From sequence record PQ724394.1: 64,000 nucleotides of DNA. One strand, given 5' to 3'. The notes beneath the pieces are model-generated. The model ran no database searches and had not been told where the DNA came from. It worked only from the letters and a program-made list of their open reading frames with translations. The translations under genes were made by a program, and so were the position numbers. Below are positions 41,672 to 48,172 of this stretch, in pieces (within the stretch, counting starts at the first letter, position 1; the number at the start of each line of letters is the position of its first letter). Origin of the DNA: a phage.

Positions 41672-42336
41672 TGACTTTAACTGAAATGAAAAGCGGGTTA
41701 AAATCCCGCTTAGCTGACTATTTGGAATTATCTTACACCAGTGACAAGCCTACTGCTGTTGCTGACCAACGACCTATCGGTGGCCCTTCTGCAAACCAAA
41801 CCCAGAAGGGTGTTTATTTTCCTACAGTCCAAAGTGCAATAGATGATATTGCATTTAGAACAGAGCTTCCTGTGAACTCTGTTATTATTACCACAGAAAA
41901 CAGAGCACCCGGATTTATCCAACAATCTGATAAAATTACATTTACCGGTTCTATTTCTTCAGGCGGCGAACTTGGCGACCCGGTTATTATTAAAGTGTTT
42001 GGACTTCCTGTAGAAGTCTTAGTTGGTGATTCATCTGTATTGGTTGCATCTAAAGTAAATGAGGTATTTTTAGACGCCATTGCTAATAGCTATATTTTAG
42101 CCGAAACATCTATTGACGCCTTAGACCAATCTACCTTGAATATTAAATACAATGACTATCAGAATCATATTTTTTCACCATATAAACAATCGGGTTGTAC
42201 AATTTCCCATACTATAGTCCAGCAGCCAAGGGCCGGATATGGTAAGTGGGAATACTTAGGTAACTCTACCCAATCGTTAGCAGGTGGTACAGTTAACGGC
42301 ACGATTCCTTTATATTACTATAAGAGATTATATTAA
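41671..42336 (+). CDS. 11: gp11 baseplate wedge subunit and tail pin
   Basis: 221 aa; synteny. Confidence 0.9.
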   Translation: MTLTEMKSGLKSRLADYLELSYTSDKPTAVADQRPIGGPSANQTQKGVYFPTVQSAIDDIAFRTELPVNSVIITTENRAPGFIQQSDKITFTGSISSGGELGDPVIIKVFGLPVEVLVGDSSVLVASKVNEVFLDAIANSYILAETSIDALDQSTLNIKYNDYQNHIFSPYKQSGCTISHTIVQQPRAGYGKWEYLGNSTQSLAGGTVNGTIPLYYYKRLY

Positions 42337-43862
42337 TGTCAACAAACACACTAAAACACATTAGTGATAAATCGGAATTCAAATCATTCGACCCTACTGG
42401 GTCGAATTTCCCGCCTGATATTACTAATGTTCAAGAAGCATTGGCGGCTATTTCATTAATCGGTGTCACAGGTAATGTTCCTTCAGCCACAGAAACATCC
42501 CAAGGTATTATTCGTCTTGCCACAACACAAGAAGTAATGGATGGGTTGGATGCCTATAGTGCAGTGACTCCGGCAACTTTAAAAGCACGTTTAGATATTC
42601 CTACTCAGGCAACAGAAACTTATGTAGGTATTACCCGTTATGCTACTAACGCTGAAGCTATAGCAGGCACAGAGCCCCAGGCTGCAATCGTAGCAACCTC
42701 TTTGAAAGCGGTAATGGATTATACATTTGAGAACCGTTTATCAACAGAGAACACTACAGGCGTTATCAAGATTTCAACTACGCCTGCTGCATTAGCTGGT
42801 ACCGATGATACCACAGCAATGACCCCACTTAAAGTATCTCAAGCAATTGGTGCGGCCACAGCAGCGTTACCGGTTTATTCTACGGCAACGACCACAAATG
42901 AAGGTTTGGTTCGTTTAGCTACTAATGCTGAAGTTGGCAATGGAAGTCTTTCGGTAGGTATTGCTATTTCTCCAGCCGGATTAGCCACATTAACTTCCAC
43001 CGAAGCCAGAAGTGGTATTATTAAACTCGCAGGTTGGGATATGGTATCTAATGGTACTGACCATACTGCTGCTGTTACTCCGGCATCTTTGCTAGCTCGT
43101 ACAGGTAATACAGGACGAATTGGCTTGGTGCGTTTAACTACTACAGTAGGACAAGGCGATGGTAATACGGCCCTGGCTTATAATGCTAACGTTATTTCTA
43201 CTTCAGGTGGTGAAATATGGGGTACTTTAAACGTTAATGGCGCATTACGTCGTAATGGTGTTGATGTTGTTACCCACGACCAATTATCAGATAGCGTTCC
43301 GGTAGGTACTATTTGTATGTGGGGTGGACATGAAGGTAATATCCCAGGCAAATGGCGAGCTTGTGTAGGTGGGACTTATACTGGTGGTGCATATTTAAAT
43401 GCTGTTGGCGGACGTTGGGGATGGTGGGGTGCTATTCCGGATTTCCGTGGATTATATCCTCGCGGTGCCAACATGGTTGGTGGATATTCTGAAGGTGAAG
43501 TTAACCCGCATATTGCCGGTAACCGAGGAGAAGACGGTAAAGGTAAAGCCCGTTTAGGTAACGGTGTAGGTTCGTTCCCACAATCTTCTGTTCAAGCCCA
43601 AGCATTACGTTATCATAAACACGCCGGTGGTTTTGGTGAACATGATAACTATGGTGCTTTTGGTAACACCGCTAACTCTGGGTATGTTGGTACTCGTAAA
43701 GGCCTTGACTGGGATAACCGTAGTTATTATACTAACGAAGGGTTTGAGACCACCGAACCTTGGAACCGTGATGGCCATACCACACTGAATAGTGAAGGAC
43801 TTATTGCAAATGAAACACGTCCTTGGACAATGTCCGTTCTTTTTATTATTAAAGTAGAATAA
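42336..43862 (+). CDS. 12: gp12 short tail fibre
   Basis: 508 aa; repetitive TPA/L... beta-structure repeats; synteny. Confidence 0.9.
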   Translation: MSTNTLKHISDKSEFKSFDPTGSNFPPDITNVQEALAAISLIGVTGNVPSATETSQGIIRLATTQEVMDGLDAYSAVTPATLKARLDIPTQATETYVGITRYATNAEAIAGTEPQAAIVATSLKAVMDYTFENRLSTENTTGVIKISTTPAALAGTDDTTAMTPLKVSQAIGAATAALPVYSTATTTNEGLVRLATNAEVGNGSLSVGIAISPAGLATLTSTEARSGIIKLAGWDMVSNGTDHTAAVTPASLLARTGNTGRIGLVRLTTTVGQGDGNTALAYNANVISTSGGEIWGTLNVNGALRRNGVDVVTHDQLSDSVPVGTICMWGGHEGNIPGKWRACVGGTYTGGAYLNAVGGRWGWWGAIPDFRGLYPRGANMVGGYSEGEVNPHIAGNRGEDGKGKARLGNGVGSFPQSSVQAQALRYHKHAGGFGEHDNYGAFGNTANSGYVGTRKGLDWDNRSYYTNEGFETTEPWNRDGHTTLNSEGLIANETRPWTMSVLFIIKVE

Positions 43863-43871
43863 GGGTAAAAA

Positions 43872-46406
43872 ATGATTAACAAATTGGAACTTAGTGAGTT
43901 ACCATTTGTTGACGGCGTACCTGATGCTCCTCAAAAGCGTATCCAATGGATACGCGAGGGTGATTGTATGTCTGCAGCAAAAACAAAATACGGCAATGAA
44001 GGTAATTTGAACGCTGCTGCTTTAGGAGTTCAGAAAAACGTAGAAGCTCTTGATGCCAACGATTTAAAAACTGCTGATAAAGTTAATGAGCTTATAGAAA
44101 ACGTTAATAATATCAATGACGCTTTAGAAATGTCAACAGATATTTCCATCATTCAACAAATAGAGAAAAACCGTGTTGATATTGTAGACCTTAAAAAAGT
44201 CACCGAAGATACAACAGAAAAATTGGACACCTTAACAACCAATTTTGATTTCTTGCGTGAAGATGTTGGATATCATGACCCTTTACAAGATGGGCCTTAT
44301 TTAACTGTACGTGAAAATATTGTTCTTCTTAAAAATGAAATTGGTCACTATGAGGACCAGGATATAAACGGTAATCCTTTACCTCCAGGTGAAACTAGTG
44401 AAGCCACTGGTATAAAACGCCGCATCATGGATAATACCACTGAATTGGTGGACCATCGTCTTCGTATTGATACCCTTGAAAGAAACTATGAAGATTCTGA
44501 TGTTGGGCAATTAGGTATTAAACTAAATGAAATTCGTGCCGAATTAGGACCACATTCTGATACGGTAGGTAAACAACCCGCTTACACCCGAATTTCAGTA
44601 TTAGAAACGGCTGCAGTTAATTTTAATACGGCTATTGACGAAATTAAGGATAATATTGATTTCTCTGGTATGCCTATAAAGGACCGAGTAACTACTTTAG
44701 AAAGCAAAACCTTTACCTTAGAAAATTCAGTTAACGTTGATTTAAAACCTAGAGTAACTTCTATAGAAACTCAAATCGGTTCTGAGTCTGCACCAGCATC
44801 TATTAATGGACGTTTAAGTGGGCTTCGTACCGATGTAAATGATTTAAAAACCGTTGTTGGTAATAGTTCTAGTGAAGGACTTCGTTTCCAGGTTTCCGAT
44901 ATTAATCGACGCCTTGGTAGTGAAGTGTCTCCTGCCGCTGGCACTATTAATAAGCGTTTGAATGATGTTATTATTCAAGCAAACCAATCTACCTCGTCCA
45001 TCCAGGATATTCAGGTAGAAATTGGTAACAACCAATCCGGTATAAAAGGTACTTTGCTTAAGCTCACAAATAAGGTTGACGGAACGAACCCTAACGGAGC
45101 TACCGTAGAAGAACGTGGTCTTATTAATGCGGTTACTTCTTTAGAAACCCAGATGCAAGGTAAATTAGGTGACGCGCCTTCTGATGGTAAACTCTATGCA
45201 CGTCGAAATGCGGCATGGGATGAAGTTGTTAATAATTCCACAGAAATAGAAACCGTTAAAGCCGATTTGGTTGTTACCAATGGTAAAGTGACCGCTTTAA
45301 CTTCCAGAGTAGATGATAATGATACTTCTATTTCATCTCTTAATACTCGCACTACTGCTCTAAATACTTCGGTTGGTGAGATTAAAGCCGATATAGTTTC
45401 TATAAAGGCTAAAGATGTTGAACAGGACGGTCGTTTAACTTCTTTGGAAGAGGCTGATGTTACTATTAACGGTAAAATTGCTGCTCTCGAAACTAAGACA
45501 GATACCACTGATGATGATGTCACAGCACTGGCTTTAGACGTTTCTTCTTTAGAGAACCAATTGACTCCTATAAAAGCCGATATTACCAAAAACAAAGGTG
45601 ATATTGTTGCCTTAACCGGTCGAGTGGCTTCTACTGAAGGCGAAATTACCGCAATTAAAGTTGATACAGCCAAAATTGCTCCTTTGACTACTAGAGTTAC
45701 TACGGCAGAAGGTAAAATCACTACTTTAGAAACAGGGCTTGCCGCTGTTAAAGTCGAATCCGATAAGGTAGCAGGTATTAATACCCGTTTAGGTACGGCA
45801 GAAGATGACATCGGAACACTTGAAACGGGTTTGGCTGAAGTTAAGGGTGAAGCCGATAAAGTAGCTGCTATAGATACCCGTTTGGGTGTTGTTGAAGCTG
45901 AAGTTGGTAAAGTAGCTTCTATAGATACCCGTTTAGGCGATGTTGAAGCTGAAGTCGGTACTCTTGAAACAGATTTATCTACTGTTAAAGGTAAAGTTGG
46001 TACTCTTGAAACAGGTTTGGCTGCCGTTAAAGTCGAATCCGATAAGGTAGCAGGTATTAATACCCGTTTAGGTACGGCAGAAGGTAAAATAACTACCCTT
46101 GAGTCTGGCTTGGCTGCTGTTGAAGTTGAATCAGATAAAGTAGCAGGGATTGATACCCGTTTAGCTACTGTTGAAGGCGAAGTTAGTACTCTTGAAACAG
46201 GTTTAGCTGCTGTTAAAGTTGAATCTGATAAAGTTGCTGACTTAGGAACCCGTTTAACCGCTGCCGAAGGTAAAATTACGGCCTTAGAAACAGAATTATC
46301 TAAACGTCCACCGGTGGCTCCTGCCGCAGACGGACTTCCGTATGTTCTGGTTGATAACGCATGGGTATTATTGTCTGATTTTGTGACTTTAAACTCAGCA
46401 CCATAA
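43872..46406 (+). CDS. wac: fibritin (neck whiskers), expanded coiled-coil
   Basis: N-terminal LPFVDG... and C-terminal foldon-like ...YVLVDNAWVLLSDF as in T4 wac; 844 aa versus 487 aa in T4 owing to tandem coiled-coil repeats. Confidence 0.9.
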   Translation: MINKLELSELPFVDGVPDAPQKRIQWIREGDCMSAAKTKYGNEGNLNAAALGVQKNVEALDANDLKTADKVNELIENVNNINDALEMSTDISIIQQIEKNRVDIVDLKKVTEDTTEKLDTLTTNFDFLREDVGYHDPLQDGPYLTVRENIVLLKNEIGHYEDQDINGNPLPPGETSEATGIKRRIMDNTTELVDHRLRIDTLERNYEDSDVGQLGIKLNEIRAELGPHSDTVGKQPAYTRISVLETAAVNFNTAIDEIKDNIDFSGMPIKDRVTTLESKTFTLENSVNVDLKPRVTSIETQIGSESAPASINGRLSGLRTDVNDLKTVVGNSSSEGLRFQVSDINRRLGSEVSPAAGTINKRLNDVIIQANQSTSSIQDIQVEIGNNQSGIKGTLLKLTNKVDGTNPNGATVEERGLINAVTSLETQMQGKLGDAPSDGKLYARRNAAWDEVVNNSTEIETVKADLVVTNGKVTALTSRVDDNDTSISSLNTRTTALNTSVGEIKADIVSIKAKDVEQDGRLTSLEEADVTINGKIAALETKTDTTDDDVTALALDVSSLENQLTPIKADITKNKGDIVALTGRVASTEGEITAIKVDTAKIAPLTTRVTTAEGKITTLETGLAAVKVESDKVAGINTRLGTAEDDIGTLETGLAEVKGEADKVAAIDTRLGVVEAEVGKVASIDTRLGDVEAEVGTLETDLSTVKGKVGTLETGLAAVKVESDKVAGINTRLGTAEGKITTLESGLAAVEVESDKVAGIDTRLATVEGEVSTLETGLAAVKVESDKVADLGTRLTAAEGKITALETELSKRPPVAPAADGLPYVLVDNAWVLLSDFVTLNSAP
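45650..46300 (+). repeat. intragenic tandem repeats (about 93 nt / 31 aa units) within wac
   Basis: Repeated TRLGTAEGKITTLETGLAAVKVESDKVAGIN-type units; a roughly 65-nt near-identical DNA segment recurs at about 45736 and 46021. Confidence 0.8.
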
Positions 46407-46409
46407 TAA

Positions 46410-46429
46410 AAGGGCTTCGGCCCTTTTTT
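46410..46429 (+). terminator. rho-independent terminator after wac
   Basis: AAGGGCTTCGGCCCTTTTTTG immediately after the wac stop. Confidence 0.75.
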
Positions 46430-46431
46430 GC

Positions 46432-46439
46432 TATAAATA
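46432..46439 (+). promoter_or_regulatory. late promoter TATAAATA for gene 13
   Basis: TATAAATA 22 nt upstream of the gene 13 ATG. Confidence 0.65.
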
Positions 46440-46460
46440 CGGTTATTAGAGGAATAAAAC

Positions 46461-47396
46461 ATGGCAAGTGAATCATATAACCCTAAGCAACTCAAGGACG
46501 CTATTCTGCGCCGCCTGGGTGCACCGATTACAAATATTGAAGTAACTACTGACCAAGTGTATGATTGCATCCAGAGGGCCTTAGAGCTCTACGGCGAATA
46601 CCATTATAACGGGTATAACAAAGGTTATCAGGCTTTTTATATCGGCCATGACGATGAAGAAAAATTCCGTAATGGTGTATTCGACCTTAAAGGACGTAAT
46701 ATATTTGCAGTAACACAAATTTTGAGAACTAACGTTGGTTCTTTAACATCTATGGATGGGCAAGCAACTTATCCATGGTTTACAGATTTTGTACTAGGTT
46801 TGGCAGGTATTAATGGTGGCCTTGGGTCTTCATGTAATAGTTTTGGACCTAATGCCTTCGGCGCCGACCTTGGTTATTTCACACAATTAATGCAATATCG
46901 TTCTATGATGCAAGACCTTTTGGTTCCTCTGCCTGATTATTGGTATAATGATGCCACTGAACAATTAAAGGTAATGGGCAACTTTGTTAAAGGCGACTTT
47001 ATTGTAATTGAAGTTTATACCCGTTCATTTAATGGTGTTGATTCCATGGTTGGGAATACAGCAGGATATGGATATGCTTCTGGTGGCTGTGACGAAAATG
47101 AATGGAGCCCTGGGGCTATTTGGGACAATCCTGCACGTCGAATTTCAGGAATGAGAGCTGGTGAGGACCTTGGACTACAAGATGGGGCGTATAATAACCG
47201 TTGGGTCAAAGATTACGCTACAGCATTAGTTAAAGAGGTCAATGGTAATATTTTAGCCAAACACCAAGGTATGCAATTAGCTGGCGGAACCACTGTAGAT
47301 GGCATTCGATTGATTGAAGAAGCTCGTTTAGAAAAAGAACGTCTTCGCGAAGAATTAGATTTGCTCGACCCACCAACACCTATTTTAATTGGATAA
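46461..47396 (+). CDS. 13: gp13 neck protein
   Basis: 311 aa (T4 309 aa); synteny. Confidence 0.9.
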
Positions 47397-47398
47397 TT

Positions 47399-48172
47399 AT
47401 GGCTACTTTCGATTCGAGTTTATTTGCTAAGCTGGAAAATAACACCGGCTATGCTAACACGAACGAAACTGAAATAATGAACCCTTTCGTCAACTTTTAT
47501 CGCCATGAGAACACTCAAACATTGGCTGATGCTTTAGTTGCTGAGTCTATTCAAATGCGTGGTATCGAGCTTTATTATATACCACGCGAATACGTTAATC
47601 CTGACCAGCTATTTGGCGAAGACCTTCAGAACAAATTTACTAAAGCCTGGAAGTTTGCAGGTTATTTGGATTCCTTTGAAGGTTATTCCGGTGACAATAC
47701 TTATTTCAGTAAGTTCGGTATGATGGTTAATGATGAGGTAACAATCACAATTAACCCTAACCTTTTTAAACATCAATGCAACGGTACTGAACCTGTTTCA
47801 GGTGACTTGATTTATTTCCCTATGGACAATAGTCTATTTGAAATTAACTGGGTTCAACCTTACGACCCATTCTATCAAGTCGGTACAAACGTCCAGCGTC
47901 GCATTACTGCTACCAAGTTCATTTATAATGGTGAGGAACTTCGTCCTGAATTACAGAGAAATGAAGGCATTAATATTCCTGAATTCAGTGAGCTTGATTT
48001 AATGCCTGTTAAAAATATCGACGGGTTGGCTGACATCTCTGATATCCAATATGAAGAGGTTAATGAGATTAATGCTGAAGCAGCGGAATTCGTACACCCT
48101 TATGTAGTGATTAACGGTAGAGGAGAAGATGCTCCTCCTACAGCATTTGATGATGCTTTTTTAGATGATTAA
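47399..48172 (+). CDS. 14: gp14 neck protein
   Basis: 257 aa (T4 256 aa); synteny. Confidence 0.9.

Follow-up and report, generated by a model that had tools for sequence, protein, structure and literature searches.

How did a T4-type phage come to carry a fibritin of 844 aa, and does the added length matter for the whisker that this protein forms? The question arises at the wac gene of a 64,000-nucleotide stretch of phage DNA (sequence record PQ724394.1), the whole of which is referred to here as the window. Fibritin takes part in the attachment and retraction of the long tail fibres (PMC3797505, PMC3004832); it holds these fibres retracted in unfavourable conditions, and its geometry is thus relevant to when a T4-type phage can infect. 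A previous, sequence-only reading of the gene had seen a T4 fibritin with T4-like ends, stretched by tandem coiled-coil repeats of recent intragenic origin, and had regarded the repeat region as a likely site of length variation.

Identity and genomic context of wac

The wac ORF (Table 1) begins with ATG, comprises 844 codons and a stop codon with 0 internal stops, and is located between gp12 (42336..43862) and gp13 (46461..47396), a position that it also occupies in JS98, JS10, VR5 and others, while its flanks are 98–99% identical to those of Dhakavirus genomes. The first half of the protein, aa 5–428, is colinear with residues 4–430 of T4 fibritin (PDB 2bsg_A; phmmer, E 8e-73), the N-terminal T4 fragments 1ox3 and 2ibl match aa 6–68 (E ~3e-13), and L10, P11, P17, Q21, R23, I24 and W26 are invariant in 33 homologues. 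At the opposite end, the final 55 aa can be aligned with the last coil segment and the foldon of a T4-type fibritin (BLASTP, E 5e-6), and the T4-like ends that had been read from the letters are thereby borne out.

The definition of JS98-type fibritins rests on two foldon-like motifs separated by a coiled-coil spacer whose length varies (Letarov & Krisch 2013, Ecol Evol, PMC3797505). The window fibritin shares with them a conserved N-terminal domain (~50 aa), a T4-like segmented shaft, two foldon motifs, a variable spacer and the gene 12/gene 13 position, and over the gene body its protein shares 99% identity with JS98 Wac. It is very probably the JS98-type fibritin of a JS98-like T4-type coliphage, a form that has already been described.

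Directly 3′ of the wac stop codon, at 46408..46429 (+), a terminator-like hairpin with a UUCG loop and a T-run can be read from the sequence, for which RNA folding gave −11.1 kcal/mol with a z of −2.5. A scan for sigma-70 and terminator consensus across wac returned nothing above shuffled expectation, and the hairpin behind the gene was not among its hits. Further on, upstream of gene 13, lies TATAAATA, the T4 late-promoter consensus. An antisense ORF of 458 aa (45194..46570) was rejected as a gene by judgement, because it is a stop-free reverse complement of repetitive coil codons and extends over both the terminator and the beginning of gene 13.

Table 1. Features of the wac locus; positions refer to the window
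Feature	Position	Strand	Basis
wac, very probably a JS98-type fibritin (neck whisker/collar fibre)	43872..46406	+	ORF; T4 fibritin match (E 8e-73); locus
T4-colinear part, aa 5–428: N-terminal neck-attachment domain and segmented coiled-coil shaft	43884..45155	+	phmmer to 2bsg_A and 3j2o_A
Internal foldon-like motif GDAPSDGKLYARRNAAWDEV, aa 433–452	45168..45227	+	Pfam Fibritin_C; regex; BLASTP; AF2
Proximal spacer, aa 457–613, non-tandem coiled coil	45240..45710	+	Heptad register; AF2 helices
Modular tandem array, aa 614–813: X1 Y1 X2 Y2 Y3 X3 X4 Y4 X5 Y5 X6 Y6 X7	45711..46310	+	Unit table; TRF; register trace
58-nt tract, copy 1: from the end of X1 through Y1 to the first base of X2	45747..45804	+	
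58-nt tract, copy 2: from the end of X4 through Y4 to the first base of X5	46026..46083	+	
Terminal foldon region PVAPAADGLPYVLVDNAWVLLSDFVTLNSAP, aa 814–844	46311..46403	+	Motif; BLASTP; AF2 hairpin
TATAAATA, upstream of gene 13	46432..46439	+	Read from sequence

Two foldon-like motifs

A T4-type fibritin has one foldon, placed at the C-terminus right after the last shaft segment. In the window protein the foldon motif APxDGxxYxRxxxxW was found by regex twice, at aa 435–452 and aa 816–834, with 361 aa of spacer between the two foldon regions, and two motifs are likewise present in all of the 515–844-aa relatives, versus one in the T4 and RB69 types. The Pfam profile PF07921 (Fibritin_C) matched aa 371–454 over profile positions 2–92 of 93, with 97.6 bits against a gathering threshold of 21 bits (E 4.7e-28), and this match is internal rather than C-terminal. 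In addition, the internal motif aligned with the T4-type foldon (BLASTP, E 8e-14). AF2, run on the monomer with a mean pLDDT of 69.5 and about 64 at both hairpins, predicted a beta-hairpin in the internal motif (442–445/448–451) and another in the terminal foldon (824–827/830–833), which is nearly invariant among homologues. Taken from profile, motif and model, the internal motif is foldon-like, a putative foldon within a continuous fibre. Pfam matches at or near the cut-offs (NPV_P10, DUF7310, LIP-1, HMMR_N, crescentin and others) were set aside as compositional coiled-coil matches and not homology.

The order of parts would then be a neck-attachment domain and segmented trimeric shaft (aa 1–428), the helices of which are broken by short loops in the AF2 monomer, an internal foldon-like beta-hairpin node (aa ~433–452), the coiled-coil spacer, and a highly conserved second foldon (aa ~814–840); we infer that the assembled protein is trimeric. 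The idea of a T4 fibritin stretched by repeats was right as to the 844 aa and the tandem array, and it overlooked both the JS98-type form and the internal foldon. The window protein exceeds T4 fibritin by 357 residues, of which only about 200 belong to the tandem array and the others to the internal foldon and a non-tandem coil of 157 aa.

Module grammar of the spacer

The proximal, non-tandem part of the spacer keeps its heptad register unbroken over aa ~457–599, and AF2 placed spacer helices at 468–540, 558–592 and 599–811, the last being a single helix over the array. The similarity of this proximal part to the array is weak (E 3e-9), and it probably consists of old degenerate copies of the same units.

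The array is built from two kinds of module, X, of 14 aa (42 nt) and exactly two heptads, and Y, of 17 aa (51 nt), which adds a register shift of 3 residues (a stammer) to its two heptads. Its 13 modules follow the order XYXYYXXYXYXYX, found in no other allele examined. A heptad trace with a home-made scoring scheme registered 0 shifts within the X units and a single +3 shift in every one of the six Y units. TR[LV] motifs occur at aa 607, 638, 669, 686, 731, 762 and 793, and their spacings (31, 31, 17, 45, 31 and 31) yield five canonical 31-aa XY units with an extra Y, an extra X and a terminal X; Tandem Repeats Finder (TRF) returned periods of 93 (score 319), 51 (score 177) and 42 (score 120). 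The at least six repeats of roughly 31 aa that had been assigned to the C-terminal half are thus real, although they resolve into X and Y modules and are confined to the last quarter of the protein.

The register of each module is closed in itself, so that X and Y could be gained, lost or reshuffled in frame and the coiled coil would still run on to its foldon cap. As a straight coiled coil at about 1.5 Å per residue, the spacer would add roughly 530 Å, which would about double the 530-Å T4-type fibre and exceed JS98 by about 140 Å.

An exact repeat within the array

The repeat described earlier as a near-identical segment of about 65 nt recurring some 288 nt downstream exists, its exact length being 58 nt and its offset 279 nt, that is, 3 x 93. 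With one mismatch allowed, the tract grows to 61 nt (45744–45804 and 46023–46083). Its two copies are its only matches in the 64-kb window, where none is expected by chance, and when codons were resampled synonymously with the protein kept (300 trials), the longest exact repeat had a mean of 18 and a maximum of 41 nt versus the 58 nt observed. Among 13 alleles compared in DNA, the longest exact internal repeat is that of the window, and several alleles are without any of 20 nt or more. In T4, recombination reportedly increases sharply above about 50 bp of homology (Singer et al. 1982), which would make the window allele more prone to deletion than the others compared; recombination between its two 58-nt copies would remove 279 nt and yield a protein of 751 aa with the array X1-Y1/4-X5-Y5-X6-Y6-X7.

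X1 of the window is identical to X1 of JS98 (0 mismatches). The adjoining Y1 differs from Y1 of JS98 by 8 nt and from that of JS10 by 6 nt, the differences being clustered at the 3′ end, and 2 mismatches separate it from an AGIN-type unit that lies downstream in JS10 and NC-G. Because the flanks of the tract point that way, the identity of Y1 and Y4 looks like a gene-conversion patch rather than a fresh tandem duplication.

Allele variation and mosaicism

About 30 relatives fall into 16 length classes of 515–844 aa and differ in length solely in the spacer between the foldons, which ranges from 32 to 361 aa; the differences are sums of 14, 17 or 7 aa. No indel falls outside the spacer or array, so the expectation of a length-variation site holds, as had already been published; the internal DNA repeats are significant, and related phages differ in length instead of sharing one repeat number. 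The 844-aa allele is the longest among the roughly 30 examined, a sample beyond which longer ones may exist, and unannotated records, e.g. of 827-aa alleles, are missing from the protein database. Lookup of the exact 844-aa protein in the assembly index gave no record, and the window-specific X3–X4 junction had 0 exact matches in IMG/VR or JGI metagenome contigs. The relatives retrieved from IMG/VR were mostly the same isolates as in GenBank.

The nearest genomes have flanks 98–99% identical to those of the window, yet carry differently arranged 827-aa arrays. Most units of the window show 0–5 mismatches to units of other alleles versus 5–11 or more to their own paralogues, with best matches spread over JS98, JS10, NC-G, VR5, Ec2-ASingh and UP19. 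From aa 481 onward, haplotype breakpoints are sharp and the mosaic is deep. The unusual junction GKITTAEGKITT is shared by the window, Ec2-ASingh and CLB_P2, and the foldon-1 region of CLB_P2 is that of a lineage (dhabil, L014) with a gene body that shares only about 70% identity with the window. For X3 and Y3 the sampled alleles offer no close match (at least 5 and 9 mismatches), indicating that part of the array history is unsampled. This evidence suggests that most units are old and that alleles are mosaics of units exchanged between phages; the 844-aa allele is in all likelihood a new combination of such old 14- and 17-residue units.

Spacer haplotypes differ by about 25–30% in nucleotides versus roughly 15% in amino acids (the latter estimated by eye), and such mostly synonymous differences imply purifying selection on the spacer.

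Origin of the array

Length variation would arise by homologous recombination between diverged repeats, through unequal crossing-over and gene conversion, both inside one genome and among Dhakaviruses that infect the same cell, while DNA is replicated in the recombination-dependent manner that T4-type phages typically use. The window allele would accordingly represent shared old units that have been remixed, with one recent conversion patch equalising Y1 and Y4. An alternative proposal is that a T4-like fibritin gained length recently and within this phage's lineage, a unit of ~31 aa (93 nt) or a block of 279 nt having been duplicated in tandem inside the gene. The exact tract at three times 93 nt and a gene exactly 279 nt longer than that of JS98 speak for this proposal, and the mutual closeness of Y2 and Y3, each other's closest units (84%; TRF period 51), is compatible with an older local duplication. 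However, segments spaced 279 nt diverge sharply beyond the 58-nt tract, 41 nt of the same identical tract are already present in JS10, and unit paralogues are 48–88% identical in DNA, Y1/Y4 being the sole identical pair. Moreover, most units are closer to those of other phages, the unit order is not derivable from any sampled allele by a single duplication, and the long spacer and second foldon are genus-wide and older. Recent duplication, which fits the Y1/Y4 pair only, is improbable, and for the array as a whole it is largely refuted.

Repeat arrays are classic sites of assembly error, and it is conceivable that extra modules were mis-assembled into a gene that is truly shorter, e.g. 751–827 aa, as the 844-aa protein and the X3–X4 junction are absent from the collections searched. 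Nevertheless, the longest exact repeat is below normal read length, all units other than Y1 and Y4 are distinct in DNA, the unique X3 and Y3 could not result from mis-joining other parts of the gene, and frame, module boundaries and heptad register are intact, which makes an artefact barely credible. We also regard as very improbable a contingency locus, in which slippage at high frequency, as in simple-sequence phase variation, would place whisker-length variants in every lysate. The units are tandem, in frame and register-neutral and isolates vary extensively, but they are long (42 and 51 nt) and diverged, exact repeats of 20 nt or more are lacking in several alleles, and Ec2-ASingh and Esco_phi_B-01 retain the same architecture despite many substitutions, so that change appears to come now and then, at the pace at which genomes diverge rather than with each generation. 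Where a simple-sequence contingency locus has many identical short tandem units, the array has a single exact pair, with 279 nt from one copy to the other. Mechanisms based on a diversity-generating retroelement or on slippage were likewise set aside, as the units are diverged and cross-phage unit matches explain the pattern.

Function of spacer length

Beside recombinational remixing of old units, the reading preferred here, stand two views of what the length does. The spacer may be selectively near-neutral in length, with the internal foldon node, at the site of the T4 foldon, doing the fibre docking, and the distal spacer and second foldon being a tolerated appendage, so that the extra 93 aa relative to JS98 would change nothing of note. 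We hold this to be possible, if not quite probable. Spacers of 32 to 361 aa occur in phages that otherwise resemble each other closely, and fibritin length differs even between members of one species, Dhakavirus JS98 (529 aa in MN04 vs 751 aa in JS98), a range that makes a precise docking geometry hardly plausible, and fibritin is not essential in T4 (PMC3004832). On the other hand, conservation of the terminal foldon, across bodies that are just 45–50% identical, far surpasses that of the internal motif, which suggests that the terminal foldon is the functional end, and the purifying selection implied by the synonymous differences also runs counter to neutrality. It has a more doubtful standing that the array is a register-neutral 'length cassette', by which recombination would tune the reach of the distal foldon (about 60 to 530 Å past the internal foldon), the length classes setting fibre-retraction geometries or thresholds or letting the distal foldon contact another partner, and the 844-aa allele being a functional extreme rather than neutral drift.

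The two-foldon JS98 architecture and its variable spacer had already been published, and the 844-aa allele leaves that picture unchanged. What is added here is the X/Y module grammar, with one stammer per Y, the evidence for alleles as mosaics built from old units that phages have exchanged, and a natural series of about 30 near-isogenic alleles of 515–844 aa, as material for testing whether whisker length is relevant. In addition, the foldon is widely used as an engineering tag, and a natural internal foldon between coiled coils could interest protein designers.

Comparison with known fibritins and fibres

T4 fibritin (gpwac, 487 aa; PDB 2bsg, 3j2o, 1aa0, 1ox3) corresponds to the window protein over its colinear part, and its last coil segment and foldon align to X7 and the terminal foldon. 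T4 lacks a spacer and has its only foldon at the C-terminus, whereas in the window a foldon motif comes about 26 aa earlier, with 361 aa of additional coiled coil and a second foldon behind it. By analogy, the window fibritin presumably forms the same trimeric parallel coiled coil and has the same long-tail-fibre role, and JS98 fibritin has been reported biochemically to trimerise on its own (PMC3797505).

Within Dhakavirus, the spacer of the window is 93 aa longer than that of JS98 (751 aa) and 329 aa longer than that of JS98-C3 (515 aa). The latter phage is reportedly the one treated by Latypov et al. 2007. Short-spacer forms comprise Bp7, MN04 and QL01 (529 aa) together with JS98-C3 and fDHCT2 (515 aa); they share the two foldons and a near-identical gene body, with about 86% nucleotide identity over the first 1439 nt, and have a spacer of only 32–46 aa with a single X unit. 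They resemble either products of a deletion between widely separated repeats or a state that has not been expanded.

Trimeric coiled-coil composition also accounts for weak spacer matches to the P22 tail needle gp26 (4lin, E 3.6e-6) and reovirus sigma-1 (6gao, E 5.7e-4), which were rejected as homologues since they share coiled-coil character only and differ in virion position and role. Among fibritins, the RB43 type carries 1 or 3 Ig-like domains and the Aeh1 type is of double length (PMC3797505). As in the window, copy-number or length variation in these types is restricted to the distal end of fibritin (PMC3797505); their modules, however, are globular Ig-like domains or unrelated sequences needing chaperones, whereas those of the window are heptad-based coiled-coil units.

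Protein architecture and locus

The wac ORF, encoding an 844-aa fibritin (neck-whisker protein, Wac), is real and lies between the gp12-like gene, whose stop codon precedes the wac start by 9 nt, and gp13/gp14, which is the wac position of annotated relatives. The T4-like N- and C-terminal ends proposed in the sequence-only reading were borne out: aa 5-428 are colinear with T4 fibritin (PDB 2bsg_A, 487 aa; E 8e-73), and the terminal foldon (aa ~814-844) aligns jointly with the T4-type last coil segment (E 5e-6), that segment aligning to X7, the last unit of the repeat array. That reading missed an internal foldon, to which the copy at aa 816-834, APAADGLPYVLVDNAWVLL, is second. The Pfam Fibritin_C model, whose end is the foldon, matches internally, its positions 2-92 (of 93) aligning with aa 371-454 at 97.6 bits. 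The internal motif GDAPSDGKLYARRNAAWDEV (aa ~433-452) fits the foldon pattern APxDGxxYxRxxxxW, as does the second copy, and aligns to the T4-type fibritin foldon (E 8e-14) with a 26-aa gap at the place of T4's last coil segment. In an AF2 monomer model (33 homologues as input, mean pLDDT 69.5), residues 442-445/448-451 and 824-827/830-833 are predicted to form beta-hairpins, with helices 468-540, 558-592 and 599-811 between them, the last covering the entire array; upstream of the internal foldon, the predicted shaft has loop interruptions. From the foldon alignments, the Fibritin_C match and this model, the architecture is a T4-like body, an internal foldon, a 361-aa coiled-coil spacer and a terminal foldon. 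Both foldon motifs occur in every relative of 515-844 aa, and only one in T4-type (485-487 aa) and 477-482-aa homologues; the window Wac belongs to the JS98-type fibritins, which have two foldons and a spacer of variable length.

Behind wac lie the UUCG hairpin and then TATAAATA, the T4 late-promoter consensus. The consensus scan across the wac gene gave nothing exceeding shuffled expectation and did not list the hairpin. The antisense ORF was rejected as a gene; its lack of stops seems merely to mirror the repetitive coiled-coil codons on the opposite strand.

Features of the wac locus
Feature	Position (nt)	Remarks
gp12-like short tail fibre gene	42336..43862	upstream neighbour of wac
27-nt tandem repeat	43626-43681	C-terminal part of gene 12; 2.1 copies, 80% match
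wac	43872..46406 (+)	844 aa
Antisense ORF, 458 aa	45194-46570 (-)	spans repeat array, terminator hairpin and gene 13 start
Haplotype region	45312-45710	aa 481-613
Exact 58-nt repeat	45747-45804, 46026-46083	offset 279 nt
Period 51 nt (Tandem Repeats Finder)	45848-45960	
Period 42 nt (Tandem Repeats Finder)	45952-46032	
Period 93 nt (Tandem Repeats Finder)	45974-46278	3' part of wac; 3.3 copies, score 319
Hairpin, UUCG tetraloop and T-run	46408-46429	directly after wac stop codon; fold -11.1 kcal/mol, z -2.5
TATAAATA	46432-46439	between post-wac hairpin and gene 13
Neck gene gp13	46461..47396	downstream of wac
Neck gene gp14	47399..48172	downstream of gp13

Modular organization of the repeat array

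The tandem array described from sequence alone is real, but occupies aa 614-813, the final quarter of the protein and not its whole C-terminal half; its ~31-aa repeats correspond to the 93-nt period, and the additional periods of 51 and 42 nt reflect two modules. With unit borders set by hand, the array comprises 13 units, X1 Y1 X2 Y2 Y3 X3 X4 Y4 X5 Y5 X6 Y6 X7, where X is 14 aa (42 nt; consensus GKITTLETGLAAVK) and Y is 17 aa (51 nt; consensus VESDKVAGINTRLGTAE). In a simple Viterbi trace of the heptad register, a single continuous register runs across aa ~457-599, all X units pass without a shift, and each of the six Y units carries exactly one +3-residue shift (stammer). Under this crude scoring scheme of our own, the modules would be self-contained in register and hence freely combinable, any X/Y combination being structurally permissible because each module brings its own register. 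Similarity between the proximal spacer (aa 457-613) and the array is weak (E 3e-9); the former probably consists of older X/Y units that have degenerated.

A near-identical DNA repeat, previously put at ~65 nt and ~288 nt apart, was recovered by a diagonal scan as 58 nt exact, or 61 nt with one mismatch, at an offset of 279 nt; the 61-nt tract has only these two occurrences in the 64-kb window, where chance would give none. As both copies encode the identical peptide, synonymous codons were resampled with the protein kept (300 trials), and the longest exact repeat averaged 18 nt with a maximum of 41 nt, versus the 58 nt observed. Moreover, other in-register identical residues of the array share the same codon in just 56%. 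The tract is thus a recent homogenisation at the DNA level.

Allele lengths among relatives

The window phage is a Dhakavirus, with wac flanks 97.6-98.8% identical to those of Ec2-ASingh, Esco_phi_B-01, JS10 and JS98. No identical wac allele was found in databases, the exact 844-aa protein being absent from the record, and the window allele is the longest among those examined. Comparison across relatives confirmed the suspected length polymorphism (515-844 aa), with all indels within the spacer; fibritin spacer length variation itself has already been reported.

Wac alleles and their module strings (P, proteins and L, loci of relatives)
Length (aa)	Phages or handles	Module string
515	JS98-C3, fDHCT2	
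529	Bp7, MN04	single X
652	P0015	
689	PSD2002	
718	P0010	
720	MX01, IME540, dhabil, ESCO10, P0009	XYXYX
722	L021	
734	UP19	
737	EcoM_005, P0007	
749	P0012	
751	JS98, NC-G	XYXYXYX
768	VR5, EcWhh-1	XYXYYXYX
772	CLB_P2	
799	JS10, IME08, L014	XYXYYXYXYX
827	Ec2-ASingh, Esco_phi_B-01	
844	window	XYXYYXXYXYXYX

MN04 (locus L010) and JS98 (L002) are both assigned to species Dhakavirus JS98, so spacer presence and length vary even inside one species. The record closest to the window flanks (PQ561418.1, phage Ec2-ASingh, partial genome of 63,988 bp, 98.1-98.8% identity) is almost window-sized yet a different sequence, its 827-aa wac having an array otherwise arranged. Several records carry irregularities: the annotated IME08 (L023) wac begins within gene 12, giving 822 aa where 799 aa is likely, ESCO10 (L026) wac is labelled 'phospholipase', wac is neither annotated nor intact in the CUA3 (L025) stretch examined, and JS98-C3 (L022) is filed under Tequatrovirus with a Dhakavirus-like wac.

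Origin of the array

Mis-assembly as the source of the extra modules is highly improbable: at 58 nt, even the longest exact repeat falls within the length of an ordinary sequencing read, the units are individually distinct, with X3 and Y3 unique in sequence, and neither frame nor register is broken across the array. Recent intragenic duplication, as proposed in the sequence-only reading, would fit only the recently homogenised Y1 and Y4 (100% identical); the other paralogues share 48-88% nucleotide identity, and for the majority of units the nearest counterpart by far is found in another phage and not in their own array. X1 and Y6 match JS98 without mismatch and Y2 with 2, X7 matches JS10 without mismatch, X4 has 1 mismatch to NC-G, JS10 and Ec2-ASingh, X5 has 3 to Ec2-ASingh and UP19 (12 to JS98), and Y5 has 4 to VR5; X3 (at least 5 mismatches) and Y3 (at least 9) are without a close match in other alleles. 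By these counterparts, the window allele is a new mosaic of old units circulating population-wide, not a product of recent duplications. The earlier observation is confirmed and its interpretation partly supported.

A conversion patch would seem to account for the identity of Y1 and Y4. Between X1, identical to that of JS98, and X2 and Y2, again of JS98 type, Y1 shows 8 and 6 nt differences from its positional equivalents in JS98 and JS10, grouped at the 3' end, but 2 mismatches to an AGIN-type unit that lies downstream in JS10 and NC-G; in JS10, a 41-nt exact repeat is already present at the equivalent units. Further upstream, aa 1-480 are nearly identical to JS98, Ec2-ASingh and UP19, and from aa 481, just downstream of the internal foldon, two haplotypes coexist with sharp switches and 22-29 differences per 90 nt, Ec2-ASingh switching near aa 511. 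Relative to loci L007-L012, of phages otherwise 98-99% identical, the differences in this region are mostly synonymous. In addition, the unusual junction GKITTAEGKITT is common to Ec2-ASingh and CLB_P2, the latter belonging, judged by its internal-foldon region, to a lineage with a gene body only ~70% identical to the window. From the unit matches, conversion patch, haplotype switches and shared junction, we infer homologous recombination, as unequal crossing-over and as conversion, both inside genomes and between co-infecting phages.

Fibre length and comparison with known fibritins

Coiled coils generally rise ~1.5 A per residue, at which the 361-aa spacer would add ~530 A, ~140 A beyond JS98 and ~470 A beyond Bp7-type alleles. 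That spacer length is near-neutral is a serious possibility falling somewhat short of probable: the spread of 32-361 aa between near-identical phages speaks against a critical role for precise length, whereas strong conservation of the terminal foldon across bodies only 45-50% identical, together with mostly synonymous spacer divergence (our own estimate), points to a functional distal part. An adaptive length-tuning role of the spacer seems rather doubtful.

As a node, the foldon motif is reusable: two near-perfect T4-like copies stand only 50 aa apart in P0026 (509 aa), P0050 (1016 aa) has four APxDGxxYxRxxGxW-like motifs, and MHG19-type fibritins (P0030, Yersinia phage MHG19, 593 aa) have a single internal copy ahead of a C-terminal domain of ~140 aa with no coiled-coil appearance. 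T4 fibritin forms a trimeric fibre of 530 A, twelve trimers of which, six as collar and six as whiskers, are bound by the gp13 dodecamer; at its C-terminus it attaches to the long tail fibre (~1440 A) at the 'kneecap'. Though not essential, it speeds fibre attachment and takes part in fibre retraction (PMC3004832, PMC12929629, PMC3797505). Whereas T4 fibritin has one foldon, the window Wac has two, with the coiled-coil spacer between them.
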